Part shown: positions 48,052 to 63,908 of the stretch, in pieces
Numbering within the stretch: position 1 is the first letter of the stretch
Layout of the letters: each line of letters opens with the position of its first letter
NCBI GenBank assembly: GCA_963795645.1
Contig: CAWCIK010000006.1
Location: 1,298,259 to 1,362,258 of the forward strand
Length of the DNA: 64,000 bases
Source of the DNA: an uncultured Chloroflexia bacterium
GTDB lineage: Bacteria > Chloroflexota > Limnocylindria > Limnocylindrales > CSP1-4
Direction of reading: 5' to 3'
Translations under genes and position numbers: made by a program
Notes under the pieces: model-generated
What the model saw: the letters and a program-made list of their open reading frames with translations, nothing else
Database searches by the model: none
What the model was told of the DNA's origin: nothing

Positions 48052-48996
48052 TCACCTGGTTGCACTGCTCACCTCCCGCACGACGACCCTGCCCCGGAGC
48101 GCCTCGATCCGCGACGGATCGACCTGGCCCGCGCCGAGCTCGAGCACGCTGGCGCTCGCCGCCGCGCCGGCGGCGGCGAGCGCCTCCACGACTGAGCGAC
48201 CCGCCTCGAGCGCCACGACGAGGCCGGCGTTGAAGACATCGCCCGCGCCGACGGCGTTGACCGCCTTGAGACGCGGCACGCGCACCGTCCAGGCCTGCGT
48301 GCCGTCCGACGCGGCCGCACCGTTGGCGCCGTCGGTCACCACGGCCAGCTGCGCGCCGCGCGCCGCGAGGCGCGCGGCCATCGCACCAGCACCGGCAAAG
48401 GACGAACCTTCCGCGGCACCGGCCTCGCGCGCCTCGGCGAGAGTGACCTTGACCACGTCAGGCGCCGCGTCGAGCGCCAGCCCCAGCGCTTCGCCACCGG
48501 CGTCGACGAGGCACCTGGCCCCGGCCTCGTGAGCGGCGTGCACGAGCTGCGCGTACGAGTCGATCGGCAGGCCTGCGGGCAGCGAGCCCGAGCAGACGAG
48601 CCACGCCGTTCGGGGCAGCAGCTCGGCGCGCAGCTGGGCGATCAACCGCTCGAGGTCGCTCTCGGCCAGCACCGGGCCGGGCTCGTATATGAGCATGGAG
48701 CGGCCTGCCGCATCGGTCGCCACGTAGGTCGAGCGCGTCTCCGGTCCGGCGGTCAGGAAATGGGGTTCGAGGCCCTCCGCCGCCAGCGCCTCGACGAGCC
48801 AGGCGCCGGCATGACCGCCGCAGATACCGGTCGTGGCTACCTGCGCTCCGAGCAGCCGCGCCGCGCGGCAGGCGTTGACGCCCTTGCCGCCGGGCAGGAC
48901 GCGGACGTCGCTGGGGCGCAGGATCGTGTCGAACGCGAGCCGATCGACCAGCGCGGTGCGATCGACGGCCGGCGCGAGGGTGACTCCGACGATCAT
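48052..48996 (-). CDS. PfkB family kinase, 1-phosphofructokinase / tagatose-6-phosphate kinase (FruK/LacC)-like
   Basis: MIVGVTLAPAVDRT N-terminus typical of FruK/LacC; GG lid motif; C-terminal anion hole NAVGAGDVFNAGL; ATGA overlap with the upstream kinase. Confidence 0.8.
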   Translation of the reverse strand: MIVGVTLAPAVDRTALVDRLAFDTILRPSDVRVLPGGKGVNACRAARLLGAQVATTGICGGHAGAWLVEALAAEGLEPHFLTAGPETRSTYVATDAAGRSMLIYEPGPVLAESDLERLIAQLRAELLPRTAWLVCSGSLPAGLPIDSYAQLVHAAHEAGARCLVDAGGEALGLALDAAPDVVKVTLAEAREAGAAEGSSFAGAGAMAARLAARGAQLAVVTDGANGAAASDGTQAWTVRVPRLKAVNAVGAGDVFNAGLVVALEAGRSVVEALAAAGAAASASVLELGAGQVDPSRIEALRGRVVVREVSSATR

Positions 48997-50012
48997 CAGC
49001 CGGCTGCGACCGGGCCGTCGAGCAGCTCTGCCTGCGGCACGCGCTCGAGTGCCTGGTCTATCTGGCCGCGGCCGGCAATCGACTCGGCCCCGCCGCGGCC
49101 GCTGAGGCTGGCCGCGGCGGACGCGGTCGCGAAGCGGGCCGCGGTCGCGATATCGTCGCCGCGCGAGAGCGCATCGAGAAAGCCGGCGTCGAACGCGTCA
49201 CCGGCGCCGACTGCCTCGCGGACCAGTGCCTCGTCGATGCGCACCGCGGGCTGGCGATAGAGCCGTGTCCCGTCGCTGACGACGGCGCCGGCGCCGCCGA
49301 GCTTGATCGCCACCAGACGCGGCCCTGCCGCGTGGGCGGCCGCGACGAGGGCGGGCAGCGTGTCGGCCTCGAAGAGCATTCTTGCCTCGTGCTCGTCGCA
49401 CAGCAGGACGTCCGACTCGCGGACTACATCGGCGACATGCGGCAGCCATGGCGCGGGCGTATCGATCAGTGGAAACTGCGGATCGATCGAGGTCAGCACA
49501 CCCTTCGCGCGGGCCTGCCGGAAGAGCGCCGCCTGGCCGCGATGCCACATCTCCGGGAAGTGCAGCAAGCCGCCCGAGTGGAGCAGCCCGAGCGGGCGCG
49601 CGCCGGGCTCGTCAGCCCACAGGCCGGGCGGGGGATCCGGCCACGGCTCGAAGCTGGGCATGCGGTAGGTCATCGGGCGCTTTATGCCGCCGAAGAGCAT
49701 CACGTAGATCGCGATCGCGGTCACGCCGTCAGCGTCGGCCAGGTGCCGACAGTCCAGGCCGCGCTGCTCGAGCTCCTGCCGTATGGCGGCACCGAAGGCG
49801 TCCGAGCCGACCGTCGAGCAGACGTCGACGTGCCAGCCAAGCCGGGCGAAGACCTGCACGGTGTAGCCGATCGACCCGGCAACGAGCAGGTCGACATCGG
49901 ACGGGCCGACCCACGCGTTAAGCGGCTCCCGCTCAAGGGGTGCCGTGCCGCGCATGAAGAGGTCCATGTTCAGCGGCCCGATGACGGCCACACGCGGCCG
50001 TGCGTCGCTCAT
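48996..50012 (-). CDS. PfkB family carbohydrate kinase (ribokinase-like)
   Basis: 338 aa from MSDARPRVAVIGP; GAGDAFDAGFL motif. The ORF's N-terminal 263 codons are spurious. Confidence 0.8.
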   Translation of the reverse strand: MSDARPRVAVIGPLNMDLFMRGTAPLEREPLNAWVGPSDVDLLVAGSIGYTVQVFARLGWHVDVCSTVGSDAFGAAIRQELEQRGLDCRHLADADGVTAIAIYVMLFGGIKRPMTYRMPSFEPWPDPPPGLWADEPGARPLGLLHSGGLLHFPEMWHRGQAALFRQARAKGVLTSIDPQFPLIDTPAPWLPHVADVVRESDVLLCDEHEARMLFEADTLPALVAAAHAAGPRLVAIKLGGAGAVVSDGTRLYRQPAVRIDEALVREAVGAGDAFDAGFLDALSRGDDIATAARFATASAAASLSGRGGAESIAGRGQIDQALERVPQAELLDGPVAAG

Positions 50013-50026
50013 AGGTTCGTGATTGC

Positions 50027-51325
50027 TCAGTGCGTCCCGGGCGGGAAGAGCATGTTCCAGACGCGGGCGTGCTTGGGCACGTTCGAGCGCTGCGTATCGG
50101 GGTTGAGACCCAGGCCGACGCCGCAGTAGTAGGGGATGAGCTGGCCGGGCAGGACGGCCAGGACGGTGAACAGCACCTCGTCCTCGATCGGCAGGCGGAC
50201 GACGTAGTCGACGATGTCGGCGATCTTGTCGTCGTTCTGGCTGACGATCGCCACGGCCGGGCTCTTGAGCTGCTCGGTCACGCGGGCGATGTCGTGCAGG
50301 TCGCCATACGAGTCGCCCGGTGGCGCGACGAGCACGGTCAGGATCGATTCCTCGGTCAGGCCCAGCGCGCCGTGGATGTGGCGCCCGGGGTTCATCGACT
50401 TGGCCGGGATATGGCTCATCTCGTCGAACTTGAGCGCGATCTCCTCGGCCGTGCCGAAGTTCGCGCCGGCACCCACGACGAGCACGCTGCGCACGCCGAG
50501 GAACATGTCGGCGATCGTCCGGCAGCGCTTGTCGACAGCATCGAACATCTCGCCCATCAGGCGCGGCGTGTCGAGCAGCTGCGCCTGGAGCTTGTCGAAG
50601 TCGAACTTGCCCGGGTTGCGCAGCTTGCCCAGCTCGAGGGCCAGGTAGATCGCCGCGGCGATTCGAGTGGTGTAGTGGAAGGTGTCCGAGCCGCCGGTGT
50701 CGAAGCCGCCGGCGGTCAGGATGCGCGCGTCGCTGGCCTGCACTACCGGGCTGCCCTCGACGCTGGTGAGCGAGAGGGTGTACGCGCCGCGCTCGCGGCA
50801 CTCGCGCGCCGCGGCGACGGTGTCGACGGTGCTGCCGCTGCCCGAGTAGGCGACGGCGAGCAGCTTGCTGTAGTCGTACGGCGGCGGATAGCGCAGGAAC
50901 GCCTGCGAGTCGTAGTCCCAGCCGGGCACGCCCGCGAAGCGGGCAAAGGCCGCGTTGGCGACCTGGGCCACGAACTGCGAGGTGCCCGAGCCGAGACCCA
51001 CGATGCCCATGAAGTCGCGCTCGGCCAGCGTGCGCGCGACCTGCGCGATCTCGTCGGCGTGCTCGAAGGTCCCGCGCAGCGCCGAGGGCTGGCTCTTGAT
51101 ATCGCCGTACAGGTTGAACGGGTGATGGGTCTGGGCCGGAGTGCCGAGCGCCTTGTACATGATCGGCTCTTCGCCGGTCGCTTCGATCTGCTCGCGGATG
51201 TCGCCGACGATGCCCCAGGTCTTGATGCGCTGGCCGCGTTGCCGGACCTCGTCAAGGTCGACGGGTGCGCCGTCGGCCGATCCAGCGGCGCTCGGGGCCG
51301 TGCCTCGGTCGTGATCCTGTGGCAT
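50027..51325 (-). CDS. Double-SIS-domain sugar-phosphate isomerase/deaminase (AgaS/GlmS-C/FrlB-like)
   Basis: C-terminal 432 codons of the 1245-codon ORF. Own start ATG preceded by AAGGAG with an 8-nt spacer. Two SIS domains (GLGSGTSQFVA... and VVGAGANFGTAEEIALK...). Confidence 0.75.
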   Translation of the reverse strand: MPQDHDRGTAPSAAGSADGAPVDLDEVRQRGQRIKTWGIVGDIREQIEATGEEPIMYKALGTPAQTHHPFNLYGDIKSQPSALRGTFEHADEIAQVARTLAERDFMGIVGLGSGTSQFVAQVANAAFARFAGVPGWDYDSQAFLRYPPPYDYSKLLAVAYSGSGSTVDTVAAARECRERGAYTLSLTSVEGSPVVQASDARILTAGGFDTGGSDTFHYTTRIAAAIYLALELGKLRNPGKFDFDKLQAQLLDTPRLMGEMFDAVDKRCRTIADMFLGVRSVLVVGAGANFGTAEEIALKFDEMSHIPAKSMNPGRHIHGALGLTEESILTVLVAPPGDSYGDLHDIARVTEQLKSPAVAIVSQNDDKIADIVDYVVRLPIEDEVLFTVLAVLPGQLIPYYCGVGLGLNPDTQRSNVPKHARVWNMLFPPGTH

Positions 51326-53248
51326 GTCGTTCAACTCCTTGCGTGGATGCCAGCGCCAACCCGGGTGGTCCGGCCGGCTCCAGCCGCCGCGGGGCGGCTG
51401 GGAGGCCGACCGCGGACCAGGCACAGGTCCGCTGTCTGATGTGCTCGATCGGGATCCGGAAGCCGCGGCGGAGCCCGCGCTGCGCTCGTTCCTTGGCGGC
51501 ATGAGCGGCAGTGCCGGACGTCCGCCCGGTGCGGCGTGCGTCGCGCCATCCGTCGTGGCGGAGGGCACTGCCGGCCGGCCGTTCATGCCGGCGACCGCGC
51601 GGACGGCCTCATCGCGCAACCGGTTGCGCTGGACCTTGCCCGATTCGGTCATCGGGAAGGACTCGACGAAACGCACGTAGCGCGGCACCTCGAACCGGCC
51701 GAGGTGCTCGGCCAGGTGGCGCAGCAGCTCGTCCTCTGTCAGCTGCGCGCCTGCCGCCGGCCGCACGAAGGCGAAGATCTCCTCGCCGTAGTACTCAGAG
51801 GGCACGCCCACGACGTGCATCTCGGCGACCTTGGGGTGGCGCCGGCCGGCCGACTCGACCGCAGCCGGGTCGATGTTCTCGCCGCCGCGGATGATCATGT
51901 CCTTGATCCGTCCGACGATGCGCCAGACGCCGCTCGCGTCGACCGTGGCCAGGTCGCCGGTGTGCAGCCAGCCCTGGCGGTCGATAGCCTGGGCCGTTTC
52001 AGCGGGCATGTCGAAGTAGCCGCGCATGACCATCGAGCCGCGCGTGACCAGCTCGCCGGGCGTGCCGGCTGCGACCGGCTTGCCGGTGGCCGGGTCGATC
52101 GCGCGCACCTCTGCCCCCAGGATCGGCCGCCCGACACTGCCCAGGCGCACGTCCTCGGGATCGTCGATCGAGGTCTGGGTCACGACCGGCGCCGCCTCGG
52201 TCAGGCCGTAGGCAACGACCAGCTGCGGGATGTGCAGCTCGTGCGCCACGCGCCGACCCAGGTCGACCGGCACCGGGGCGCCGGCGATGATGCCCGTGCG
52301 CAGCGAGGACAGGTCCGTTCGCGTCCGCTCGGGGCTCTCGAGCAGGGCGACGAACATCGTCGGCACGCCATAGAGCACCGTGCAGTGCTCGGCGGCGACC
52401 GAGCGCAGCACAGCGTCCGCGTCGAAGACCTCGGACGGCAGCACGATGGCCGCCCCGTAGGTAACCGCCGCGAGCGTGCCCATGACCGCCCCGAAGCAGT
52501 GGTGGAAGGGGACCGGCAGACATACTCTGTCGCCGTTCGAGAGGCGGATGTTGGCGCCGACGGCAGCCGCGTTCTGGAGCATCGCCCGGTGCGTCAACTG
52601 GACGCCCTTGGGGAAACCGGTCGTGCCCGACGTGTACAGGATCATGCTCACATCGTCGGGCTGAGTCCGGCTCGCGGCGCGCGCCAGCTCGGCTTCGCTC
52701 GTGCCTTCGGCCGCGGCCGTGAAATCGGCCCAGCGCATGGCCGCGCCGGGAACGTCGGCGACCTCGGGCAGGGCAACGACGCGGCGCAGCGAGCGCGGCC
52801 CCTCGCCGCGAGCCAGGCGATCGAGGAGCGCGGTGCGCGGCTTGCGGTGAGTGCCGGCGATGAGCATGGCGGCCCCGGAGTTGGCCAGGATCTGCTCGAT
52901 CTCCTCGTCGCCCAGGCCGGCGTTGGCCGTGGCCACGATCACGCCCGCGTACGCCGCGCCGAGCTGCACGAGTGGCCACTCGGGCGCGTTGCGTGCCCAC
53001 ATGACGACCCGCTCACCCGGCGTGACGCCGAGCGCGAGCAGGGCGCGGCCCACCTGCTTGGCCTCGGCGTGGAGCTCGGCATAGTCGAGGCGCCTGCCGC
53101 TCGAGGCATGGACGAGAGCCTGACGCTGGCCGTTGCTGCGTGCTGCCCGATCGAGCAGCGCTCCGATGGTCGCGCTGCGCAGCTGGGGTTGGTGGCCGTT
53201 GCTGCCGGTCGCGGCCCTGCGCGCGAAGCCCGCCGGCGGCGCTGCGAC
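51326..53248 (-). CDS. AMP-forming acyl-CoA synthetase/ligase (FadD-like), reading through without a stop into the SIS gene frame
   Basis: Motifs ILYTSGTTGFPKGV, YGLTE, TGDL, IKDMIIRGGENI, ESGKVQR. Then an 85-aa low-complexity Pro/Ser/Arg tail with no stop codon before the SIS ATG. In another frame a TGA sits inside the SIS SD (AAGGAGTTGAACGACATG), as expected for a natural gene end. Boundaries approximate. Confidence 0.6.
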
Positions 53249-53764
53249 GGCGGCAAAGGCGGGCGTGGCCAGCAATGCGCCGAGCTCGGTCGCCCTGACC
53301 AGCAGGCCGGCCGCACCGCTGCGCAGCATCTGGTCGACCTCAGCGACGCCGGAGGCGGTGCCGATGACCGTCACACCCGGCGTGTCGCGCAGAGCGTCGA
53401 CCAGTGCGGGATCGCGCACGACGAGGGCGGTCGCGCCGCTCTCCACCGCGCGCCGCGCCTCGGCCGCGTTGGCGACCTGGGCCGCGATCGGCGCGCGACC
53501 GCGGCGGACGAGCTCGGTCACGAGCTGGTCTGTTGTCTCTGCCGGGCGATACAGGATGCCGGCACGGACCGGCAGCCGGGCCGCGAGCTGGGCGGGCGCG
53601 ATCTTGCCGTCGCGCTCGTCGATGCGCATGCACAACGTGTCGCCGGGCCGGCCGTAGAGCGGGCTGCTCCCGTTGACGACGATGATCGCGGCGATGCCCG
53701 ACGCGCGCGCGGCATCGAGCCCGGCGCGATCCTCGACCTCGACCCACAGGGCGGGCGTGCTCAT
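53249..53764 (-). CDS. Unknown about 170-aa alpha/beta domain (no confident family), first reading frame after the BMC shell genes; in frame with the ligase with no intervening stop
   Basis: ATG at 53764 overlaps the BMC-T stop (ATGA). Alternating hydrophobic beta-strand and Ala-rich helix pattern (GIAAIIVVNGSSPLYG ... ALVVRDPALVDALRDTPGVTVIGTASGVAEVDQML). Weak resemblance to KDPG-aldolase/OMPDC-like TIM folds, but catalytic Lys not found. Confidence 0.45.
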
Positions 53765-54411
53765 GCCGCGCTCCTGCGCGCGCCGCCGTCACGGCCGCTG
53801 AGCGATGCGAGCGCATCGAGTGCGCGCTCCTGGGCGATGCGCACGCTCGACTCCTCGCCGCTCACGTACAGCCGCCCGAATCGCCCGATGGGCCTGACAT
53901 CGATGATGTCGATATCTGCCGCGCGCTCGGCCTCGTTGGCGGCGAGCAGGATGTACGCCGCCGGCGTGACCTCGAGCACGAGCAGCGTCTCCTGGGGCAC
54001 CAGCAGCGAGCCCTTGCGGAAACGGTTCACCAGCTGGGCCTGGAAGGGCGTCACGTTGGTGATCAGGTTCTGCGACACGACCTGCGGTCGAAGGCGGTCG
54101 CCCTCGCTCAGGCCGATCCGCTCGAGAATGACGCGGCCCGCCTCGGCGACTTCCTGCGGGTCGGTCGCGTGGAGTGAGAGCATGCCGAACTCGCGCTCGA
54201 CGACCTGCGAGCTCGGACGCACGTTGGTCGCCTTGAGCGCCGCGTCGGCGAGCAGGTATATCTCGTTGCCCGGGGCGACCTCGATGAACAGCTGGGCCAT
54301 GCCGACGAGCGGGATGTCGCCATCTGCAACGGTCGCCTCGTAAGCCGCATAGCGCGGCTGCATGCGCGAGACGATGCCGTAGGCACGCAGCTCTCGACCG
54401 GCTCCGGGCAT
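53761..54411 (-). CDS. BMC-T shell protein (tandem/permuted BMC domains, EutL/PduB-like)
   Basis: Two BMC-like repeats (LFIEVAPGNEIYLLADAALKATNV and LLVLEVTPAAYILLAANEAERAADIDIIDV). Paralog of the BMC-T gene at 54707-55333. Start 3 nt after the EutN-like stop. Confidence 0.75.
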   Translation of the reverse strand: MPGAGRELRAYGIVSRMQPRYAAYEATVADGDIPLVGMAQLFIEVAPGNEIYLLADAALKATNVRPSSQVVEREFGMLSLHATDPQEVAEAGRVILERIGLSEGDRLRPQVVSQNLITNVTPFQAQLVNRFRKGSLLVPQETLLVLEVTPAAYILLAANEAERAADIDIIDVRPIGRFGRLYVSGEESSVRIAQERALDALASLSGRDGGARRSAA

Positions 54412-54705: not shown

Positions 54706-54706
54706 C

Positions 54707-57158: not shown

Positions 57159-58651
57159 CGGTCGCTCTCGGCGAACCAGTCGGTCGAGTGCTCGGCGAGG
57201 TTGACGTAGACGTTCTTGACCTCGGTGAACGACTCGATCGCGTGCGGCCCGTTCTCGCGTCCCCAACCGCTCTGACGGAAGCCGCCGAATGGTGCCTCGC
57301 TGGTGACGACGTTGTACATGTTGACCCAGATCGTGCCCGCCCTGATCGCGCGCGCCACGCGGTGCGCGAGCTTCACGTCGCGCGTCCAGACGCCCGCGGT
57401 CAGGCCGAAGATCGTGTCGTTGGCGATCCGGATCGCGTCCTCGGGCGTGTCGAAGGGCATGATCGCCACGACCGGGCCGAAGATCTCCTCGCGCGCAATG
57501 CGCATCTCGGGATGAATGTCGACAAAGACTGTCGGCGCTATGTAGTTGCCCCGCGCGAGCTCCGGCGCGGACGGCTTGACGCCTCCGATCAGCAGTCGCG
57601 CACCTTCCTCCCGACCTGAGCGGATGTGGTCCATGACGCGCGAGCAGTGGGTCGGCGAGATCAGTGGCCCGACGTCCGTCCGTGGATCAAGCGGATCGCC
57701 CATGCGCAATGCACCGGCGCGCTCGGTGAAGCGGGCGACAAAGGCGTCGAAGATGGGCCGCTGGACGAGCAGCCGCGAGCCGGCCGTGCAGATCTGACCC
57801 TGCGTCCAGAAGACGCCGAAGAGCGCGCCTGCGACGGCATCCTCGAGGGGCGCGTCCGCGAAGACGATGTTGGGCGCCTTTCCGCCCAGCTCGAGCGACA
57901 CACGCTTGAGGTTGCCTGCCGCCCCGGCGGCGATCTGCTTGCCAACGTCGGTCGAGCCGGTGAACGTGATCTTGTCGACGTCGGGGTGCTCGACCAGCGC
58001 CTGGCCGACCTTCGAATCTCCGATGACGACGTTGATCACGCCGGGCGGCAGGCCCGCTTCCTGGCAGATCTCGCCCAGGCGCAGTGTCGTCAGCGGCGTG
58101 TCGGACGCCGGCTTGATGACGACCGTGTTGCCCGCTGCCAGCGCTGGTCCGAGCTTCCAGGAAGCAAGCAGGAGCGGGAAATTGAAGGGCGTGATCGCGC
58201 CGACCACGCCGAGCGGCTCGCGCAGCGTGTAGCTCAGCACGTCGCCCGGAACCGGCAGCGTCTCGCCGGTGATCTTGGTCGCGAATCCGGCCCAGTACTC
58301 GAAGCAGTCGGCCGAGAGCGGCACGTCGATCTGGCTGCTCTCACGGATCGGTTTGCCGTTGTTGCGCGTCTCGAGCTCGGCGATGGCCTGGTTGTCACGC
58401 TCCATCAGAGCGGCGACGCGGAGCAGGTAGCGTCCGCGCTCGCTGGCCGACATGCGCGGCCACGGCCCCTCGTCGAACGCGCGCCGCGCCGCGGCAACGG
58501 CGGCATTGAGGTCGCGCAGGTCACCGGCCGGGACCTCGGCCAGCGGCTCGCCCGTGGCCGGGTTGTGGACGGTGGTCAGCCGGCCGCTGGCAGGCGCGAC
58601 CCAGCGGCCGTCGATGAGCTGGTTGGGGAAGGTCAACAGCGGGCTCGTCAC
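57155..58651 (-). CDS. NAD(P)-dependent aldehyde dehydrogenase, classical non-acylating type (AldA / betaine-aldehyde-DH-like)
   Basis: ITPFNFPLLL, VIKPASDTPLTT, ELGGKAPNIVFADA, GQICTAGSRL (catalytic Cys), EEIFGPVVAI, PFGGFRQSGWGRENG. Not the PduP/EutE acylating type. GTG start placed at MTSPLLTFPNQLIDGRW; a CTG overlapping the permease stop is an alternative. Confidence 0.85.
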   Translation of the reverse strand: MTSPLLTFPNQLIDGRWVAPASGRLTTVHNPATGEPLAEVPAGDLRDLNAAVAAARRAFDEGPWPRMSASERGRYLLRVAALMERDNQAIAELETRNNGKPIRESSQIDVPLSADCFEYWAGFATKITGETLPVPGDVLSYTLREPLGVVGAITPFNFPLLLASWKLGPALAAGNTVVIKPASDTPLTTLRLGEICQEAGLPPGVINVVIGDSKVGQALVEHPDVDKITFTGSTDVGKQIAAGAAGNLKRVSLELGGKAPNIVFADAPLEDAVAGALFGVFWTQGQICTAGSRLLVQRPIFDAFVARFTERAGALRMGDPLDPRTDVGPLISPTHCSRVMDHIRSGREEGARLLIGGVKPSAPELARGNYIAPTVFVDIHPEMRIAREEIFGPVVAIMPFDTPEDAIRIANDTIFGLTAGVWTRDVKLAHRVARAIRAGTIWVNMYNVVTSEAPFGGFRQSGWGRENGPHAIESFTEVKNVYVNLAEHSTDWFAESDR

Positions 58652-58659
58652 GGCCGCGG

Positions 58660-59610
58660 TCAGTCCCTGAACCGGTCGAGCGAGATGGCCACGATCAGGA
58701 TCGCGCCGAGCAGGACACGCTGGTACTCGGAATCGACGTGGAGCAGGATCAGGCCGTTGAGCAGGCTGGCCAGGAAGATCGACGCTATAAGCGTGTTCTC
58801 GATCCGGCCTCGACCGCCCTGCAGTCCGGCACCGCCGAGGATGACCGCGGTCAGGACCGGAAACAGCGCCGCATCGCCGAGCGACGCCGTCGCCTGCGAT
58901 ACGCGCGATACCCAGACCACTCCACCCAGGCCGGCCAACGCCCCAGCTGCGATGAAGACGGCCATCCGAATCCGATTGACGCGGATGCCCGCACGGAACG
59001 CCGCCTCGCGGTTGTCGCCGACGAGGTAGACATGGGCGCCGAACGGAGTCCGGTTGAGGATGAACCAGGCGATCGTGTAGCCGATGAACATGAGCAGGAC
59101 CGGGATGGGCACGATGCCGATGTAGCCGCCCGCCAGCCAGTCGATCGGATCGAGCGCGGGACCGGTGATCGCGTGGCCCTGCGTATAGACCAGGCCAATG
59201 CCGAGCACGACGCTGAGCATGCCCAGAGTGGCTACGACCGACGGGATGCGGAAGAAGGTCACGAGTGTGCCGTTCACCACGCCGACAAGCGTGCCGATGA
59301 GAACCGCGGCGCCGATCGCGATGATCGGGTCGTAGCCCGAGACGAGCAGCTCCGCGGCGGTCACGCCGGCGACGCCGATGACGCTGCCGAACGAGAGGTC
59401 GAGCTCGCCGACCAGGATGACGAACGTCGCGCCGATGGCCGGGATGGCATAGATCGAGGCCTGGCGCAGGAGGAGCGGGATATTCCGCTCGGTCAGGAAC
59501 GTGTCCGTGGTGAACGACAGGAAGATGATCCAGCCGATGAAGAAGACGATGAAGCCGTAGTCGGCCAGGAAGTCGATGACGCGGACCCGGATGGGCGTGC
59601 GGTGCAGCAT
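58660..59610 (-). CDS. Sugar ABC transporter permease (RbsC/BPD_transp_2 family)
   Basis: 8-10 TM segments and the conserved GG.G...N.L...D.G motifs of monosaccharide ABC permeases. ATG at 59610 chosen (a TTG at 59664 is the alternative). Confidence 0.8.
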   Translation of the reverse strand: MLHRTPIRVRVIDFLADYGFIVFFIGWIIFLSFTTDTFLTERNIPLLLRQASIYAIPAIGATFVILVGELDLSFGSVIGVAGVTAAELLVSGYDPIIAIGAAVLIGTLVGVVNGTLVTFFRIPSVVATLGMLSVVLGIGLVYTQGHAITGPALDPIDWLAGGYIGIVPIPVLLMFIGYTIAWFILNRTPFGAHVYLVGDNREAAFRAGIRVNRIRMAVFIAAGALAGLGGVVWVSRVSQATASLGDAALFPVLTAVILGGAGLQGGRGRIENTLIASIFLASLLNGLILLHVDSEYQRVLLGAILIVAISLDRFRD

Positions 59611-59630
59611 GGGGACGTCGGCCGCGACGC

Positions 59631-61793
59631 TCACGAGGCCGGCTCCAGGCGCAGCACGGCACAACCCTGCGGCGGCACCTCGAACGTGAACGACACGACA
59701 TCTTCGTCGCCGGTCGCGTTGTTCGCCGCGATCGGCGGAGCCGACGCGTTGACGCTGACCGCGTTGTAGGCGACGCCGGCCTCAAGGCCGACTCTCGTGC
59801 GCGGCAGGTTGACCGTGACCTGGCGCGCAAAGCGCGAGTCGCCCATCCAGCCCGACTCGAGGTTGCCCAGCAGCAGGTGGATGCGCCCATTGCTACGCCA
59901 GCAGCTGACCGTGACCGGCTCGTGGGCGGCCACCTGGTCGACGCTCAACCCACCGCTTTGGGCGGCGCGATCGTTGAGCAGACGGGCGACCTCCACGTAC
60001 GGGTTGACGCTGCCGATCTGCGAATGAGGGACGAGCGGGTTACCCGGGTCGGCCAGGTCGGGCGGTTGCCAGTGGTAGACGCCGTCGCGACCGGCGAGAA
60101 GAGGCAGACCATCGGACGCGTAGCCGATCCAGGTGCCTTCGTCGGCGCTCAGCGCGCTGCGCTCGGGCAGGTGAACACGTTCCTCGGGCGCCAGGTCGTG
60201 GCTCGACGGCGCTCCGAGACGGTAGCCATCGGGCTGGCGTTCGCCGGTCAGGGCGACGCCCGCCGCGGTCAGGAGCGCCGGCTCGACCAGGTCCGCCCGG
60301 CCGCTGCCGACGAGTGCACCCCAGCGGCCATCGAGCTTTCCCGCTGCCGCTGCCGACGGCATCTGCCAGAGCAGGCCGTCGGGCCACTGCCCGGGCAGCC
60401 ACTCTGGGCGGCTGGCGGCCAGGAAGGCCGCCCCCCATTTGAGCGCCATTCCGGCATAGTCCTCGGCCCACTCGCTGCCGTTGCTGGCCGGGTCGTGCTC
60501 GTACTTGGCCTCGAGGCCGGCCCGGTCATGGACGAGCAGCGGCCCGAAGACGGCCTCGATGCCAGCGGCGCTCGACTCTGCCGCGGCCAGCCGCGTGGCA
60601 AGGAAGTCGACGTCCTGCGTGCTGATCAGGCGCTTGTTCCAGTCGTTCATCCAGCTGATGTAGGTCCCCTCGGGAACCACCGGCCGGCCGTCGCGATCGA
60701 GCACAGCGGCGTGGCCGAAGGCCCACATCGCCCATTCGAGCTTTCCCGGCGTGTCGTGCAGCGTGTCCCACGGCTCCCAGCCGTCCCAGGTCTCGATCAA
60801 GTTGTATTGGCGGCACGGGCTTGCCCCTGTCGCGGCGCGCGTCTCGTTGCCGCCGCGGATCTGGGCGCCGTGGCCGAGCAGGTAGGCGAGCTGGAAGGTC
60901 CAGCCCTTCCAAGTGTCATCCCACCAGTCTTGCCAGGCACCGCCCCAGGTCTGGTCGATGAAGATGTCGAGTGCGCCGTCGGCGACTATCGCCTCCAGGT
61001 CGACGCAGCCGGCGAGCCACTCCGACGTGCCGCTGATGCCGCTCGAATAGGTCATCACCAGGCCTTCGGGATGGGCTTCCTTGCACGCCCGGAAGAGGCG
61101 CCGGACAGCGTCGGTCCACGAGCGGTTCTCGTCCGGGTCGCTCGAGGCGACGCTGCCATACGGGCCTACGCGGGTGTAGAGCAGCGGGCCGAACATGCCG
61201 TCGCGCAGGTGGATCAGGTCGAGCCCGAGATAACGGGCGACCGAGCCCCACTGGGCGCCGAAGAACTCTGGAAAGGGCTCGCCCTCGGCGATGCCGTCGG
61301 GCCGAGTCGCGTAGCGGTACGAGTCGGCATGAAGCCGCACTCGAGGATCGAGGTCGGGTCCGGGCAGGGGCGAGATGTCGAGCGGATAGAGCTCGGGATG
61401 GCGGTCGTACCAGAACGAATAGAGGTCGTACATGCTGCCCGTATCAGGCGGGGCCACGACCTGGCCGAGACCGGCGATGAGCACGCCCATCTTGATGTCG
61501 GTCAGGCCGTGCGCGGCATACGCCGCACGGAGCGAGGAGATGAACTCGCGCAGGTCGGCATAGCTGAGGCCGGCCCAGCGCGCGTAGCGGCGGGAGCGGA
61601 GCGGCAGCGGCTGGTCGCCGCTGCCGCTCCATTCGGTTACGAGATCGGCCAGCCAGCCGATGTTGAAGCAGACGCCGCGCAGATCACGCTCACCCGCCAA
61701 CAGGGGCAGGGTGCGCTCGGCAAACTCGACCTGGCGGTCGGCCCAGGGCCGTTCGCCAAACCAGTCGATGTCCACCTCGATCCAGCGGTCCAC
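59631..61793 (-). CDS. Hypothetical 720-aa cytoplasmic protein (Trp-rich; possibly glycoside-hydrolase-like TIM barrel) embedded in the sugar ABC transporter gene set
   Basis: GTG start with GAGGGAGA SD 25 nt after the SBP stop; no signal peptide; many W/Y/D residues (QTWGGAWQDWWDDTWKGW); no family recognised. Confidence 0.55.
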   Translation of the reverse strand: MDRWIEVDIDWFGERPWADRQVEFAERTLPLLAGERDLRGVCFNIGWLADLVTEWSGSGDQPLPLRSRRYARWAGLSYADLREFISSLRAAYAAHGLTDIKMGVLIAGLGQVVAPPDTGSMYDLYSFWYDRHPELYPLDISPLPGPDLDPRVRLHADSYRYATRPDGIAEGEPFPEFFGAQWGSVARYLGLDLIHLRDGMFGPLLYTRVGPYGSVASSDPDENRSWTDAVRRLFRACKEAHPEGLVMTYSSGISGTSEWLAGCVDLEAIVADGALDIFIDQTWGGAWQDWWDDTWKGWTFQLAYLLGHGAQIRGGNETRAATGASPCRQYNLIETWDGWEPWDTLHDTPGKLEWAMWAFGHAAVLDRDGRPVVPEGTYISWMNDWNKRLISTQDVDFLATRLAAAESSAAGIEAVFGPLLVHDRAGLEAKYEHDPASNGSEWAEDYAGMALKWGAAFLAASRPEWLPGQWPDGLLWQMPSAAAAGKLDGRWGALVGSGRADLVEPALLTAAGVALTGERQPDGYRLGAPSSHDLAPEERVHLPERSALSADEGTWIGYASDGLPLLAGRDGVYHWQPPDLADPGNPLVPHSQIGSVNPYVEVARLLNDRAAQSGGLSVDQVAAHEPVTVSCWRSNGRIHLLLGNLESGWMGDSRFARQVTVNLPRTRVGLEAGVAYNAVSVNASAPPIAANNATGDEDVVSFTFEVPPQGCAVLRLEPAS

Positions 61794-61817
61794 TCGGCGT
61801 CTCCCTCGCTATCGGGC

Positions 61818-63908
61818 CTACTGACCCTGACCCATGTACGTGGAGACCGGCACTTCGAGCGAGTTCGGCACCAGCGCTCCGGCCATCAGCTTGGCGATGG
61901 CGTTGGCCGCCAGCGTGCCTGTGCCGGCGGGGTTGGTGTCGACGCAGCCGCGGTACATCGTGCCCTGGTCGATCAGGGTGACCGCCGCGGGATCACAGTC
62001 GATGCCGAAGATGGCTACGTCATCGGCCGTCTTGCCGGCCTGGTCGAGGTACTGGTAGGCGCCCAGGTCGCCGCCGTCGTTGATGCCGGTGACGAGCCTG
62101 ATGGCGGGGAACGCGGTGAAGGCCGTCTCGGTCGAGGCGACCGCGTTTTCGGCCAGACCGCCGAGGTAGCGGCCGACGACGTTGACGTTCGGGTTGGTTT
62201 CGGTGAGGCCCTGCTGGATCGCGTCGGCGCGAGCGACCAGGTCGGGGATGTCGGGGTAGTCGAGGATCATCGTCTGGACTTCCTCGCCGGGCCACGTCTG
62301 GGCCGCGAAGGTGCCCGCCGAGCGGCCTTCCTGGAGGCCGATAGTCAGGTTGTCGACGCTGATGCCGACGGCGCCCGTGTCACCCAGATCGAGTCCGGTG
62401 ACCTGGACCACGATGATGCCATCGTTGATCGCGGTCGTGGCCGCATCGCCTACGGTCGCCGACGAGCTGGTCGTGATGATCGCCGCGACGCCGTCCTGGA
62501 CGAAGCCCTCGAAGCACTGCAGCGCCTTGTCGGCGTCAGTCTGCGAATTGCAGATGTTGACCGTGGCGCCCATGGCTTCGAGTGCGTTCTTGGCCGTGTT
62601 GTTGAGCAGCGTGTGGTACTCGGTCTCCATCGTCGTGGCGACGATGCCGACCGTCTTGCCGGCCAGCGCGGCCGATGCTGCGGTCTGCTCCTCGGGGGTG
62701 AGCTCGAAGTCCGAGCCCTGGCCCTTCTGGCCGAGTGCCACGGCGCCGTTGCCAACCGAGACCTTGCCCTGGTAGGTCGAGACCGGAACCTCGACACTGC
62801 CCGGAACGTCCGCTCCGGCCATCAGCTTGGCGATGGCGTTGGCCGCCAGCGTGCCTGTGCCGGCGGGGTTGGTGTCGACGCAGCCGCGGTACATCGTGCC
62901 CTGGTCGATCAGGGTGACCGCCGCGGGATCACAGTCGATGCCGAAGATGGCTACGTCATCGGCCGTCTTGCCGGCCTGGTCGAGGTACTGGTAGGCGCCC
63001 AGGTCGCCGCCGTCGTTGATGCCGGTGACGAGCCTGATGGCGGGGAACGCGGTGAAGGCCGTCTCGGTCGAGGCGACCGCGTTTTCGGCCAGACCGCCGA
63101 GGTAGCGGCCGACGACGTTGACGTTCGGGTTGGTTTCGGTGAGGCCCTGCTGGATCGCGTCGGCGCGAGCGACCAGGTCGGGGATGTCGGGGTAGTCGAG
63201 GATCATCGTCTGGACTTCCTCGCCGGGCCACGTCTGGGCCGCGAAGGTGCCCGCCGAGCGGCCTTCCTGGAGGCCGATAGTCAGGTTGTCGACGCTGATG
63301 CCGACGGCGCCCGTGTCACCCAGATCGAGTCCGGTGACCTGGACCACGATGATGCCATCGTTGATCGCGGTCGTGGCCGCATCGCCTACGGTCGCCGACG
63401 AGCTGGTCGTGATGATCGCCGCGACGCCGTCCTGGACGAAGCCCTCGAAGCACTGCAGCGCCTTGTCGGCGTCAGTCTGCGAATTGCAGATGTTGACCGT
63501 GGCGCCCATGGCTTCGAGTGCGTTCTTGGCCGTGTTGTTGAGCAGCGTGTGGTACTCGGTCTCCATCGTCGTGGCGACGATGCCGACCGTCTTGCCGGCC
63601 AGCGCGGCCGATGCTGCGGTCTGCTCCTCGGGGGTGAGTGTCAGATCGTCGGCCGTCCCCTTCTGACCGACGAGGACGCTGCCGTTACCCGAAGCGGGTG
63701 TGCTCGGCGCCGCTGTCTCGGGCGCCGCTGTCACGGGCGCCGCTGTCTCAGGCGCCGCTGTCACGGGCGCCGCTGTCACAGGTGCCGCCGTTGCCGTTGG
63801 CTCCGGCGCAGCGCTCGCAGGCGCCGCTGTGGGCGACGCCGTCGGCGTGCCCGAGCACGCCGCGACCATCAGTACGGCCGCCGCGGCCGTCAACCAGGTT
63901 CGCTTCAT
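61818..63908 (-). CDS. Lipoprotein sugar-binding protein (periplasmic-binding-protein type I, RbsB-like) with two tandem binding modules
   Basis: ATG with AGAGGAGG SD; lipobox LMVAAC-S; Ala/Pro/Thr linker encoded by tandem 18-bp repeats (63700-63800); then two about 312-aa PBP modules that are 100% identical at the nucleotide level over about 830 bp. Confidence 0.8.
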   Translation of the reverse strand: MKRTWLTAAAAVLMVAACSGTPTASPTAAPASAAPEPTATAAPVTAAPVTAAPETAAPVTAAPETAAPSTPASGNGSVLVGQKGTADDLTLTPEEQTAASAALAGKTVGIVATTMETEYHTLLNNTAKNALEAMGATVNICNSQTDADKALQCFEGFVQDGVAAIITTSSSATVGDAATTAINDGIIVVQVTGLDLGDTGAVGISVDNLTIGLQEGRSAGTFAAQTWPGEEVQTMILDYPDIPDLVARADAIQQGLTETNPNVNVVGRYLGGLAENAVASTETAFTAFPAIRLVTGINDGGDLGAYQYLDQAGKTADDVAIFGIDCDPAAVTLIDQGTMYRGCVDTNPAGTGTLAANAIAKLMAGADVPGSVEVPVSTYQGKVSVGNGAVALGQKGQGSDFELTPEEQTAASAALAGKTVGIVATTMETEYHTLLNNTAKNALEAMGATVNICNSQTDADKALQCFEGFVQDGVAAIITTSSSATVGDAATTAINDGIIVVQVTGLDLGDTGAVGISVDNLTIGLQEGRSAGTFAAQTWPGEEVQTMILDYPDIPDLVARADAIQQGLTETNPNVNVVGRYLGGLAENAVASTETAFTAFPAIRLVTGINDGGDLGAYQYLDQAGKTADDVAIFGIDCDPAAVTLIDQGTMYRGCVDTNPAGTGTLAANAIAKLMAGALVPNSLEVPVSTYMGQGQ
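61875..63638. repeat. In-frame tandem duplication, period 936 bp; 61875-62702 is identical to 62811-63638
   Basis: Line-by-line comparison at offset 936 shows identity. The ORF track shows identical antisense ORFs 62020..62295 and 62956..63231 and matching + ORFs 62311 and 63247. Flanks diverge (C-terminus ...VPVSTYMGQGQ vs the inter-module ...VPVSTYQGKVSVGNG). Confidence 0.85.

Follow-up and report, generated by a model that had tools for sequence, protein, structure and literature searches.

Catalogued bacterial microcompartment (BMC) types carry defining enzymes, and these offer a direct comparison for the locus described here. MIC1 has LDH/MDH-type and Zn-type dehydrogenases and an MreB-like protein, SPU has PF01791, PF02502 and a BMC-P triplet, PVM has a PF00596 aldolase, and RMM1 has a class III aminotransferase, a phosphotransferase and a short-chain dehydrogenase. 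None of these is found in the 64-kb stretch of DNA that we analysed (the window) or in the 10 kb on either side of the shell genes of four related genomes. Profile searches over the same regions likewise turn up neither PduL nor PduP/EutE nor a known signature enzyme, and the preliminary description's statement that none is recognisable holds for both.

The shell, on the other hand, does have known counterparts. With H, P and two T(dp) proteins it resembles RMM1, which has two T(dp) proteins in the catalogue's HMM-name table, and its composition is similar to that of MIC-type loci of Actinobacteria; in the catalogue trees, the BMC-P is placed close to the MIC1/BUF2 'purpleBlue' clade and the T(dp) close to BUF3. 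These likenesses are what one would expect of a diverged member of a catalogued type (MIC1, SPU, RMM1 or PVM). Against this stand the missing defining enzymes and the catalogue's own files: in the 2021 tree files, the homologous GWC2_73_18 locus is labelled 'bmcType=UA (main) (omitted)' and is thus assigned to none of the 68 types. We consider membership of a catalogued type highly improbable and already largely refuted. The earlier proposal of a new type is supported by this unassigned homologue and by an enzyme set unlike that of any catalogued type, and we read the locus as a new 'metabolosome with an incomplete core' type in the Axen/Sutter nomenclature.

Operon layout and shell

The BMC locus at 48052-63908 is a real and conserved operon. 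On the minus strand, a single operon encodes two BMC-H, two CcmP-like BMC-T(dp) and one BMC-P protein together with an ALDH2/BADH-type aldehyde dehydrogenase, an iron-type alcohol dehydrogenase, two PfkB kinases, a CUT2-type sugar-binding protein and a permease; the BMC genes lie within an operon of uncultured soil Dormibacterota for taking up and breaking down a sugar derivative. Domains were called by Pfam and NCBIfam profile searches, which recover every gene of the preliminary description on the strand and at the positions it gave; solved structures were compared through the PDB and folds through AF2 and Foldseek. The features are as follows.

61818-63908, minus: sugar-binding protein (SBP), lipoprotein-type CUT2 (PF13407, Peripla_BP_4, 4e-56, twice)
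59631-61793, minus: U720, glycoside-hydrolase-like cytoplasmic protein whose family has no Pfam or NCBIfam model
58660-59634, minus: ABC permease (PF02653, BPD_transp_2, 1.6e-39)
57155-58651, minus: aldehyde dehydrogenase (ALDH), NAD(P)-dependent hydrolytic ALDH2/BADH type (PF00171, 4e-183)
56016-57158, minus: iron-type (group III) alcohol dehydrogenase (Fe-ADH; PF00465, PF25137)
55726-56019, minus: BMC-H1, divergent hexamer protein, C-terminal tail of 23 aa, pore motif GDG (PF00936, 2.8e-18)
55369-55665, minus: BMC-H2, basal-type hexamer protein with KAAQ and ARPD edge motifs and pore GDG (PF00936, 2.2e-27)
54707-55333, minus: BMC-T1, the first BMC-T(dp), CcmP/CsoS1D-like tandem-domain shell protein (NCBIfam CcmP model, 1.6e-51)
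54415-54705, minus: BMC-P, vertex pentamer protein, the only one of the locus (PF03319, 3.5e-26)
53761-54414, minus: BMC-T2, the second BMC-T(dp), CcmP/CsoS1D-like (NCBIfam CcmP model, 1.3e-67; PF00936, 8.4e-08)
53225-53764, minus: N-terminal domain of a fusion protein, predicted minimal eight-stranded TIM barrel of ~165 aa
51560-53195, minus: ligase domain of the fusion, AMP-forming, fatty-acid/medium-chain CoA-ligase-like (PF00501, 1.5e-94; PF13193, AMP-binding_C)
51215-51559, minus: linker of the fusion, Pro/Arg/Ser-rich and disordered (alignment of nine loci)
50027-51214, minus: SIS domain, C-terminus of the fusion, GlmS-isomerase-type double-SIS amino-sugar-6-phosphate deaminase/deglycase (PF01380, twice)
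48996-50012, minus: PfkB1, divergent ribokinase-family sugar kinase (PF00294, 1.4e-31)
48052-48996, minus: PfkB2, 1-phosphofructokinase/tagatose-6-phosphate-kinase-type hexose-phosphate kinase (TIGR03168, 226.6 bits, above the 216.4 cut-off)
46416-47974, plus: convergent unit of two genes, 46416-47216 for a single-domain ABC ATPase and 47270-47974 for a HAD-family hydrolase (PF00005, PF13419)

The tight ATGA/GTGA coupling reported earlier is seen as stop/start overlaps at five junctions: GTGA between U720 and the permease (whose start is GTG) and between ADH and BMC-H1, ATGA between ALDH and ADH and between BMC-T2 and the fusion gene, and TGATG between the two kinases. PF00936, PF03319 and the CcmP model likewise account for the complete shell; BMC-T1 orthologues in related loci carry PF27545 (CsoS1D_N). 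The acidic GDG pore motif of BMC-H is conserved across loci, invariably so for BMC-H2 in all related loci, which would make the pores unfavourable to anions such as sugar phosphates and carboxylates.

Could the shell genes be a decaying or non-functional remnant, adjacent to the enzymes only incidentally? Every genome compared is a metagenome-assembled genome (MAG), no signature enzyme was found in the regions searched, and the canonical N- or C-terminal encapsulation extension is absent from ALDH and ADH across loci, all of which would suit a remnant. Yet all five shell genes remain intact, in a constant order and overlapping with their neighbours; neighbouring enzymes are only 55-65% identical between species, whereas BMC-H2 is 84-91% and BMC-T2 74-82% identical across most loci. 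Moreover, BMC-T2 as a query retrieves 650 proteins from metagenomes at E<=1e-5, the best 120 of which are 73-100% identical. We find the remnant reading scarcely credible, and the same search contradicts the description of this BMC type as 'rare' within its lineage.

Relatives with and without a shell

At least 13 species-level Dormibacterota/Chloroflexota MAGs carry the 15-gene operon and its convergent ABC-ATPase/HAD pair behind a SorC regulator. The conserved order is SorC-SBP-U720-Perm-ALDH-ADH-H-H-T-P-T-fusion-PfkB-PfkB followed by the convergent HAD and ABC ATPase genes (identical in L001-L004, L006-L011, L014, L018, L019, L020, L023 and L024), and the genes flanking it differ between loci. 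The convergent pair holds the equivalent position in L019, L020, L023 and L024, and PfkB2 is present in all five loci readable that far (these four and the window). In the window, this transporter ATPase and HAD hydrolase lie just beyond the interval covered by the preliminary description.

Relatives without BMC genes delimit a SorC-regulated core module that consists of a CUT2 ABC importer, a U720-type protein, a PfkB kinase and a GlmS-type double-SIS enzyme. L021 reads SorC-SBP-U720-Perm-SIS-PfkB-ABC; L022 and L016 (Actinobacteria) have a flavin amine oxidase in place of the SIS enzyme. PfkB1 belongs to this module, and PfkB2 was not called in L021. In the window, ALDH, Fe-ADH, the five shell genes and the TIM-barrel/ligase part separate the permease gene from the SIS part. 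Because the BMC-less relatives keep only SorC-SBP-glycosidase-permease-SIS-PfkB, the stretch from ALDH to ligase looks like an inserted block.

Enzymes and uptake proteins

What had been described as three genes, for an unknown domain, an acyl-CoA ligase and a double-SIS enzyme, is a single minus-strand ORF of 1,245 aa (50027-53764) that runs from the N-terminal domain through the ligase and a linker of ~115 aa to the double-SIS enzyme. This ORF is without stops in all nine loci compared (the window and eight further species), independent gene callers predict proteins 1188-1248 aa long, and metagenomes supply a matching protein of 1236 aa. Within the linker, there are no in-frame stops in any of the nine loci while most other frames are stopped, GC3 peaks in frame, and two islands are conserved (LPL(L/M)xPK and PPRxGWxRPxxxxWxWxP, nine loci). 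The stand-alone SIS homologue of L021 begins exactly where the linker ends. As a separate gene, 53249-53764 is rejected; it forms the N-terminus of the fusion. In the predicted model of this domain the Schiff-base lysine is missing and the conserved residues lie off the usual catalytic face, and the barrel looks non-catalytic. The ligase domain scores 566 bits against NF009233, below the cut-off, and its best PDB matches are feruloyl-/fatty-acyl-CoA synthetases and 4CL. Among PDB entries, the SIS domain (73-87% identical in most loci, 64% in L018) matches GlmS isomerase domains best (3.9e-24); in the alignment it retains the phosphate loop and the equivalents of E488 and H504, and the lysine of NVPK, outside the aligned stretch, may be the counterpart of K603.

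The ALDH had been called non-acylating from its ELGGK, EEIFGP and PFGGFRQSGWGRE motifs. All three are in the translation, as is the catalytic GQICTAG cysteine, and both structural and profile comparisons agree on a hydrolytic, non-acylating enzyme of class 1/2/BADH type. PDB entry 4o6r is the best match (E 3.7e-145, aligned over almost the full length), followed by ALDH2 and BADH (~1e-145); in NCBIfam the best-scoring kinds are BADH, phenylacetaldehyde and ALDH2-type, with the BADH models at 568.6 and 565 bits, neither of which reaches its cut-off (593 for the 565 match). The enzyme also bears a C-terminal tail conserved across loci, NLAExSxDWF. Fe-ADH scores best against an ErcA-like model (381 bits), then lactaldehyde reductase (331) and the choline dehydrogenase GbsB (284), all below their cut-offs. 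An AldA/FucO-like lactaldehyde pair, as first suggested, gains no specific support from these matches; every enzyme of the locus scores below cut-off in the equivalog (substrate-specific) NCBIfam models.

At the 5' end, the sugar-binding lipoprotein and the permease are as described, while the 720-aa 'unknown' protein now has a fold. SBP has a VAAC lipobox after MKRTWL... and is an in-frame tandem duplication of the whole binding domain (312-aa halves with 291/312 identities, 936-nt period), a duplication also found in L014. U720 finds no match in Pfam, NCBIfam or the PDB by sequence. Its AF2 model (pLDDT 93.3, pTM 0.94) is confidently modelled as a GH42/GH164/GH35-like glycosidase fold: Foldseek matches it to GH42 beta-galactosidase, GH164 beta-mannosidase and an exo-beta-glucosaminidase, which we take to be GH35, with E of 1e-18 to 1e-14, TM ~0.5 and 8-12% identity. 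At the end of strand 7, E334 is the same in all compared loci. The two PfkB kinases are confirmed by Pfam; PfkB1 has weak NCBIfam matches to IolC and FrlD, and its best PDB match is YdjH, at 65 bits.

The proposed aldehyde and its possible source

No gene for an enzyme that must generate an aldehyde was found in the locus. For the aldolase predicted earlier, a class II FBP/TBP enzyme (PF01116) is a candidate; it lies directly upstream of the regulator in four of the 13 related loci (L003, L004, L011 and L018) and is absent from the window and the other nine neighbourhoods. Aldolases of this type normally yield triose phosphates.

One way to use such an aldolase is a PVM/GRM5-like sugar-fragment compartment, where PfkB, SIS and PfkB2 would make a ketose phosphate that an aldolase, either the class II neighbour present in some genomes or an enzyme from another locus, would split into DHAP and a short aldehyde; ALDH and Fe-ADH would then dismutate this lactaldehyde, glycolaldehyde or substituted glyceraldehyde in the shell. 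The 1-phosphofructokinase family score of PfkB2, the lactaldehyde reductase match of Fe-ADH and the adjoining aldolase all fit, as does the kinship of PfkB1 with YdjH, whose partner PF01116 aldolase releases an aldehyde that is not phosphorylated. However, most neighbourhoods lack the aldolase, it sits outside the inserted block where present, and the ligase is given only an ad hoc role. The conserved SIS phosphate loop further implies a 6-phosphate, so that cleavage would give ordinary triose phosphates. We judge this reading quite unlikely.

Alternatively, the compartment may oxidise an alcohol, as in ETU- or alk-like systems: U720 or the SIS deglycase would free an alcohol or amino-alcohol aglycone, luminal Fe-ADH would make the aldehyde, and ALDH and then the ligase would complete the path through acid to acyl-CoA, with the sugar handled outside. 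The enzymes of the inserted block are precisely this triad and nothing else, and all three are missing from BMC-less relatives. The BADH/aminoaldehyde-like ALDH and the GbsB-like matches of ADH also fit, the amine-oxidase variants (L022, L016) point to an amine-bearing substrate, and the acidic GDG pores would suit alcohols that are cationic or neutral. But with ADH and ALDH both oxidative, two NADH would be made per substrate without recycling or a luminal sink, the aglycone has no candidate, and neither the fusion of the SIS enzyme to the ligase nor the co-travel of PfkB2 with the block is explained. We regard this, too, as unlikely, though slightly less so.

The reading that we favour, with somewhat better than even confidence, is a functional, lineage-typical BMC operon of Dormibacterota/Chloroflexota soil bacteria, an incomplete-core metabolosome with the following pathway. 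The imported compound would be a small amino-sugar or glycated-amine glycoside, whose sugar part would be phosphorylated, de-aminated and passed to glycolysis, with PfkB2 and, in some genomes, the neighbouring class II bisphosphate aldolase completing the route. The shell would confine an aldehyde derived from this compound, through either Fe-ADH oxidation of a released alcohol or amino-alcohol or aldolase cleavage. ALDH would convert the aldehyde to the acid while Fe-ADH balances NAD(H), and the two gated BMC-T(dp) proteins would let ATP, CoA and NAD through. ALDH, ADH and the fusion are putative shell cargo; the fusion may act as a cargo hub through its linker motifs, and possibly its TIM barrel, substituting for canonical amphipathic encapsulation peptides. 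In these bacteria an ATP-dependent ligase would thus form the CoA thioester, replacing the canonical PduP/EutE and PduL chemistry.

An operon of shell, sugar-import and sugar-phosphate genes

The ORF listing and family searches recover every gene that the preliminary description named in this region; all are minus-strand genes within 48052-63950, in a window with a G+C content of about 68%. The tight coupling it reported also holds, with a stop/start overlap or near-abutment at most junctions (GTGA, ATGA, GTGA, ATGA, TGATG), and its central claim is borne out: this is a non-canonical bacterial microcompartment (BMC) locus tied to sugar import, in which PduP, PduL and a signature enzyme are not found. 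Parts of the anatomy have to be redrawn. The "unknown domain", the AMP-forming ligase and the double-SIS enzyme, described as separate genes, instead share one reading frame, 50027-53764. Between them, the overlapping junctions and the very low E-values place the operon and gene assignments far beyond chance. The features, in transcription order and followed by the convergent neighbors, are:

61818-63908, minus: sugar-binding protein, lipoprotein-type, Peripla_BP_4
59631-61793, minus: U720, a 720-aa protein with no family match
minus, 3' of U720: permease, BPD_transp_2
minus: aldehyde dehydrogenase (ALDH), PF00171 at 4e-183
minus, directly upstream of BMC-H1 with overlapping stop/start: Fe-type alcohol dehydrogenase (Fe-ADH), PF00465/PF25137
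55726-56019, minus: hexamer shell protein BMC-H1, PF00936 at 2.8e-18
55369-55665, minus: hexamer shell protein BMC-H2, PF00936 at 2.2e-27
minus: trimer shell protein BMC-T1
minus: pentamer shell protein BMC-P, single copy, PF03319 at 3.5e-26
minus: trimer shell protein BMC-T2
50027-53764, minus: fusion protein, a 1,245-aa ORF (the former "unknown domain" is 53249-53764)
minus, operon 3' end: two PfkB kinases (PfkB1, PfkB2)
46416-47974, plus, convergent on the operon: single-domain ABC ATPase of the transporter and a HAD hydrolase

A BMC locus of any type has at least one BMC-H (PF00936) and one BMC-P (PF03319) gene among enzyme genes; here there are two PF00936 proteins, one PF03319 protein and two CcmP-type trimers in one operon. 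BMC-T1 and BMC-T2 match the NCBI CcmP model at 1.6e-51 and 1.3e-67, and orthologues of both carry the CsoS1D_N family; we therefore assign both to the double-stacking class, BMC-T(dp). In both BMC-H proteins, Gly-Asp-Gly stands at the site corresponding to the Gly-Ser-Gly that lines the PduA pore. Every locus keeps this motif in BMC-H2, and two related loci (L001 and L009) have Gly-Arg-Gly in BMC-H1. With six Asp per ring, such a pore would favor cationic or neutral metabolites. Neither the ALDH nor the Fe-ADH has an N- or C-terminal extension of the length of an encapsulation peptide. Beyond the ALDH fold there is a C-terminal tail of 10-15 aa, NLAE(H/R)SxDWF(G/A) (57155-57200, minus), conserved in most related loci and more divergent in L008. 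Since it contains Trp, as do the linker motifs of the fusion protein, this tail may be a docking motif.

How widespread is this arrangement? A search with BMC-T2 gives 650 homologues at E<=1e-5. Identity in the best 120 spans 73-100%, with a 100%-identical protein encoded on a 1.5-Mb NCBI/ENA contig; soil-type metagenomes supply most of these 120, and the sources that are named are Candidatus Dormibacterales or Dormibacteraeota. Scanning one genome per species with U720 yields 18 loci. Thirteen of these, in Dormibacterota/Chloroflexota metagenome-assembled genomes (MAGs), have the order SorC-type regulator, sugar-binding protein, U720, permease, ALDH, ADH, H, H, T, P, T, fusion, PfkB. In four related loci with public gene calls (L019, L020, L023 and L024) a second PfkB closes the operon and is followed by the convergent HAD and ABC-ATPase pair, and the outer flanking genes vary from genome to genome at both ends, which bounds the conserved unit at 17 genes. 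The microcompartment operon is a conserved trait of the Dormibacterota lineage. For gene content 5' of the operon, beyond window position 64000, we rely on the syntenic relatives: a class II FBP/TBP-type aldolase (PF01116) stands immediately upstream of the SorC regulator in only 4 of the 13 loci (L003, L004/L020, L011 and L018; in L004 at 6829-7767), and no copy is detected anywhere in the 64-kb window.

Several observations concern the rest of the window. Adjoining the ABC-ATPase/HAD pair is a luciferase-like flavin monooxygenase (PF00296; 45287-46327, minus), which is not conserved at that position in L019, L020, L023 and L024. A 596-aa protein (36031-37821, minus) has a signal-like N-terminus and long Gly-rich (GGxGG) repeats ahead of a beta-rich C-terminal part. 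A signaling cluster (5573-10210, plus, and 23502-24440, minus) encodes a PAS-GGDEF diguanylate cyclase and two proteins with adenylate/guanylate-cyclase domains, one of them 882 aa long with TPR repeats. Rfam and tRNA scans of 1-64000 find no tRNA gene and no Rfam family at gathering score.

Core enzymes and catalogued BMC types

The ALDH has its best solved-structure match in 4o6r (E 3.7e-145), with a near end-to-end alignment and close residue-by-residue agreement, and structures of ALDH2, retinal dehydrogenase, phenylacetaldehyde dehydrogenase and betaine-aldehyde dehydrogenase (BADH) score almost equally (E ~1e-145). Its best family score is to BADH (565, for a cut-off of 593). It contains ELGGK, GQICTAG and EEIFGP, and has the general-base and cysteine motifs of hydrolytic ALDHs. 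Judged from sequence, then, the enzyme is hydrolytic and not of the PduP/EutE type, in agreement with the preliminary description, which had called it non-acylating. As it is the only ALDH of the operon, the operon does not contain the CoA-acylating ALDH of a canonical core. The Fe-ADH supplies the alcohol dehydrogenase that such a core uses for NAD recycling; its family scores, all below cut-off, are highest for ErcA-like enzymes, followed by lactaldehyde reductase and GbsB-type choline dehydrogenase.

A second ALDH gene, apparently broken by frameshifts, lies outside the conserved BMC locus (33154-35851, plus). ORF 33154-34647 starts ALDH-like and then loses the frame, and ORF 34112-35851 covers ALDH profile positions 270-416 before a membrane-like tail. 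We read its sequence as methylmalonate-semialdehyde-dehydrogenase-like (MMSDH, a CoA-acylating type); it is either a pseudogene or a sequencing error.

PduL (PF06130) has no match among the window ORFs scanned or among the called genes within ±10 kb in L019, L020, L023 and L024. DeoC, RpiB, PF00596 aldolase, diol dehydratase, EutBC and glycyl-radical enzyme are absent from the same two sets, and the ±10 kb of the four loci hold no second ALDH. A metabolosome with incomplete core (MIC) is defined by the presence of an aldehyde dehydrogenase and an incomplete core, with no PduL-type phosphotransacylase (PTAC) and/or no signature enzyme (PMC4207490). The window locus has an ALDH, no PTAC and no recognizable signature enzyme, and so, by the rule of the published nomenclature, would count as a new type of MIC. 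The preliminary suggestion of a new type agrees with the catalogue, where no type matches gene for gene (type descriptions in PMC8217296; MIC1 in PMC4207490). A syntenic locus is nevertheless present in its tree files: the shell proteins A2X23_10740, A2X23_10745 and A2X23_10750 of Chloroflexi bacterium GWC2_73_18 (L010) are labelled "bmcType=UA (main) (omitted)" (PMC8217296), and the HMMs that match that shell best are those of a "purpleBlue0 outlier" BMC-P and of a BUF3-like T(dp). We read "UA", a label that lacks a definition in the paper, as unassigned; on this reading the locus was seen once before and left out of the 68 types.

The nearest relatives by definition are MIC1, with LDH/MDH-type and Zn-type dehydrogenases and an MreB-like protein (PMC4207490), and MIC2, with glutamine synthetase and a 6PGDH-like protein (PMC8217296). 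Like these types of Actinobacteria and Proteobacteria, the locus combines a pfam00171 ALDH, an alcohol dehydrogenase and a shell with no PTAC and no recognizable signature enzyme, and it has the minimal shell set of the MIC class, BMC-T(dp) included. Unlike the window locus, MIC1 and MIC2 have no Fe-ADH, acyl-CoA ligase, SIS, PfkB, ABC importer or fusion protein. The defining Pfams of MIC1 are absent from the conserved operon in L019, L020, L023 and L024; an LDH gene at 30170-31117 is 17 kb away, outside the conserved locus. The ALDHs of MIC1 and ARO share one catalogue HMM, separate from the EutE/PduP HMM (PMC8217296).

RMM1 (Rhodococcus/Mycobacterium; aminoacetone/amino-2-propanol) has a signature set of class III aminotransferase, phosphotransferase and short-chain dehydrogenase (PMC4207490) and two BMC-T(dp) proteins in its shell (catalogue HMM-name table, PMC8217296). 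It resembles our locus in these two BMC-T(dp), in a high-GC Gram-positive-type lineage, in an amine-bearing substrate (putative in our case) and in having no complete PduL/ADH core. The conserved enzymes differ, however. A class III aminotransferase (PF00202, the RMM1 signature family) stands upstream of the SorC regulator only in L001/L019 and L009, two closely related genomes, and we rejected it as an RMM-like signature enzyme on account of this narrow conservation.

SPU loci carry PF01791 (DeoC), PF02502 (RpiB) and a BMC-P triplet (PMC8217296); the window and the related loci have a single BMC-P and neither PF01791 nor PF02502. The likeness to SPU and PVM/GRM5 is that of a BMC set within sugar/sugar-phosphate catabolism, with the aldehyde thought to come from a sugar fragment. 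PVM, however, has a PF00596 class II aldolase that the window locus lacks, and in both SPU and PVM the ALDHs are of the PduP type and bear encapsulation peptides, and a PTAC is mostly present; the window locus shows none of these. The enzyme sets of ARO, BUF2 and BUF3 are unrelated to it (PMC8217296). On gene content, membership in MIC1, MIC2, SPU, PVM, RMM1, BUF2/3 and ARO is ruled out. Many orphan BMC types already exist, and the locus is a new type of a known kind of system rather than a categorically new one. Our literature searches found no paper linking Dormibacterota to microcompartments and nothing relevant on ligase-containing BMCs.

Two other systems share parts of this logic. AlkJ/AlkH/AlkK form a triad that converts alcohol to aldehyde, acid and acyl-CoA, and the alk genes are not compartmentalized. 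In the ETU ethanol microcompartment, which lacks a separate signature enzyme, the ADH produces the aldehyde and the ALDH is CoA-acylating. Like the Alk triad, the ADH, ALDH and ATP-dependent ligase of the window form a self-contained module; unlike either system, the window has a hydrolytic ALDH and a ligase fused to a sugar-phosphate enzyme.

The fusion protein and the probable sugar pathway

The fusion protein joins an N-terminal domain (Ndom), the ligase, a linker and the double-SIS part. Its frame is uninterrupted in eight further species (1,188-1,571 codons stop to stop), public gene calls at four loci give single AMP-binding plus SIS products of 1,188, 1,221, 1,248 and 1,240 aa, and the identical architecture is seen in an independent protein of 1,236 aa from a metagenome. 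The linker, 80-125 aa and poorly conserved overall, contains two conserved islands, LPL(L/M)xPK and PPRxGWxRPxxxxWxWxP. It has in-frame stops in none of nine loci, whereas the other frames usually have them; its GC maximum falls on the in-frame third position, and the stand-alone SIS protein of a BMC-less relative begins exactly at the linker end. Taken together, the frame kept across species, the gene calls and these linker properties argue from sequence that the fusion is real and its linker under selection.

The ligase is of the generic fatty-acid/aryl-CoA-ligase type. The SIS part, which matches PF01380 in two stretches, is closest to the GlmS isomerase domain; aligned to 1moq it keeps the GTS and SGSGST phosphate-binding loops and the equivalents of Glu488 and His504, and the Lys of a C-terminal NVPK, outside the aligned stretch, may match Lys603. 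GlmS-isomerase-type double-SIS enzymes are marked by two SIS domains, a Ser/Thr phosphate loop and equivalents of Glu488, His504 and Lys603; by these marks we place the SIS part among them, and its sequence fits an amino-sugar or fructosamine 6-phosphate de-aminating isomerase. Of the kinases, PfkB2 scores above the threshold for the 1-PFK hexose-kinase family, and PfkB1 is divergent, with YdjH as its best solved relative.

The preliminary description had proposed structure prediction for the 53249-53764 domain and for U720, and both give confident folds. Ndom is predicted to be a minimal eight-stranded TIM barrel (pLDDT 90). Its beta-alpha loops are very short in the model, its conserved residues precede rather than follow the strands (alignment and model), and it has no conserved lysine, the Schiff-base lysine that class I aldolases and transaldolases carry on strand 4 or 6 being absent. 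Given these three features Ndom is probably not the missing aldolase; the model suggests that it may have a structural role. An exhaustive HMMER search finds 11 relatives among 1.84 billion representative proteins (a word-index search gave 1).

U720 (pLDDT 93) is predicted to fold as a TIM barrel, an alpha/beta domain and a beta-sandwich, a three-domain architecture that matches GH42 beta-galactosidases, GH164 beta-mannosidases and exo-beta-glucosaminidases at about 10% sequence identity. Enzymes of clan GH-A have a (beta/alpha)8 barrel with the acid/base on strand 4 and the nucleophile Glu on strand 7. U720 has an invariant Glu334 at the end of strand 7, and its strand 4 ends in an invariant Arg-Asp instead of the usual Asn-Glu. 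It has no Pfam (including no GH model), NCBIfam or PDB sequence match and about 260 known relatives, and we regard it as a member of a new family of glycosidase-like enzymes, a putative hydrolase.

The neighboring sugar-binding protein (61818-63908, minus) is an in-frame tandem duplication of the whole Peripla_BP_4 domain, with halves of 312 aa each (291/312 identical; DNA 95% identical over 936 nt). The closest relative, L014, has a like duplication (7917-9970). As the halves are near-identical within each genome although the two genomes differ by about 25%, the pattern points to gene conversion, to duplication that occurred independently or to an artefact of long-read assembly.

Relatives that have no BMC genes put the sugar pathway in context. 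One Chloroflexota MAG (L012, the same as L021) has the regulator, sugar-binding protein, U720, permease, a stand-alone SIS, one PfkB and the convergent ATPase; it lacks the shell, the ALDH, the ADH, the ligase and the second kinase. Such operons of core genes only define a core uptake-and-breakdown module, and in Dormibacterota an ALDH-to-ligase block stands, as if inserted, between the permease and the SIS gene, with the ligase fused to SIS. These BMC-less sister operons offer a natural before/after comparison of a pathway acquiring a compartment. The sugar-binding protein, U720, permease and ATPase are also kept in the Actinobacteria Microcella sp. (L022, 7062-15448) and Desertimonas flava (L016, 8745-18117), and L013 and L015 are Ilumatobacter versions of the core module. 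The actinobacterial modules have no shell genes, their SIS enzyme is replaced by a flavin amine oxidase, and several have two U720 paralogues. A ligase gene in Desertimonas was ruled out as part of the operon by the TetR gene between them. Desertimonas flava is a cultured strain and could serve to find the substrate.

Amadori compounds are degraded by two routes, kinase plus deglycase or amadoriase. The swap of SIS enzyme for amine oxidase parallels these routes, and by this analogy suggests cleavage of a sugar C-N bond as the key step. Amino sugars and Amadori compounds are broken down by the FrlB/FrlD, AgaS and GlmD/NagB-II pathways, and amadoriases replace FrlB/FrlD elsewhere much as the oxidase replaces SIS among our relatives. 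The pairing here of a PfkB kinase with a GlmS-type double-SIS enzyme beside an ABC importer presumably corresponds to the kinase and C-N-cleaving enzyme of these pathways. Unlike them, the window locus reaches no equivalog score and has a CUT2 importer and an extra glycosidase-fold protein; to our knowledge, none of them involves a fusion to a CoA ligase or an association with a microcompartment.

A proposed pathway and its significance

The gene content suggests the following scheme. A small amino-sugar or glycated-amine glycoside would be imported, U720 would release its sugar part, PfkB1 would phosphorylate it and the SIS domain de-aminate it, and PfkB2 with a class II aldolase would push the sugar part into lower glycolysis. 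The shell would confine an aldehyde derived from the imported compound. Here the ALDH would convert aldehyde to acid with the Fe-ADH balancing NAD(H), and the ligase would make the CoA thioester at ATP cost, in place of PduP and PduL. The two T(dp) proteins would be the obvious route for ATP, CoA and NAD, and the fusion protein with its linker motifs would be the best candidate for a cargo organizer.

The weak point of this mechanism is the origin of the aldehyde, for which we give three sources comparable weight. The Fe-ADH could oxidize a released alcohol or amino-alcohol, which would suit the acidic pores, the amine-oxidase variants and the resemblance of the ALDH to BADH. An aldolase could cleave a ketose phosphate, a source favored by PfkB2 and by the aldolase gene found next to some of the loci. 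Or the aldehyde could arise from chemistry linked to the SIS step, which would make sense of the fusion of ligase to SIS. We also considered sulfoquinovose (sulfo-EMP) catabolism, since SIS, PfkB, class II aldolase and ALDH/ADH fit the handling of sulfolactaldehyde, and set it aside in view of the second kinase, the amine-oxidase variants and a match to sulfofructose kinase of only 39.6 bits.

A bolder reading, which as a whole we think unlikely, is that both the core chemistry and the way in which the metabolosome assembles are new. At the center of the organelle would be the ~1,200-residue TIM-barrel/acyl-CoA-ligase/GlmS-type-SIS fusion, whose Trp/Pro-rich linear motifs, and not amphipathic encapsulation peptides, would dock cargo to the shell. 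C-N cleavage of an amino sugar or glycated amine would occur at or in the compartment; the amine-bearing fragment would pass cation-selective (Asp-lined) pores and become an amino-aldehyde, to be oxidized by the BADH-type ALDH; formation of the thioester would depend on ATP rather than on PduP/PduL.

The locus is a compact, well-bounded test case of 17 genes that lacks two textbook features, an acylating ALDH and PduL, and apparently a third, amphipathic encapsulation peptides. What it has instead is a hydrolytic ALDH, a ligase that uses ATP, acidic pores and a giant fusion whose linker carries conserved motifs. The locus also adds two unannotated protein families with confident predicted folds, a GH42/GH164-like putative glycosidase (U720) and a minimal natural TIM barrel (Ndom). 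As an experimental target it is attractive for the fusion, the proposed ATP-dependent thioester route, the apparent lack of encapsulation peptides and the clean comparison of BMC-plus with BMC-minus operons. The Dormibacterota, known here from metagenome-assembled genomes only, are an abundant group of soil bacteria; if the bolder reading is true, they would possess an organelle devoted to the scavenging of glycated or amino-glycoside compounds in soil.
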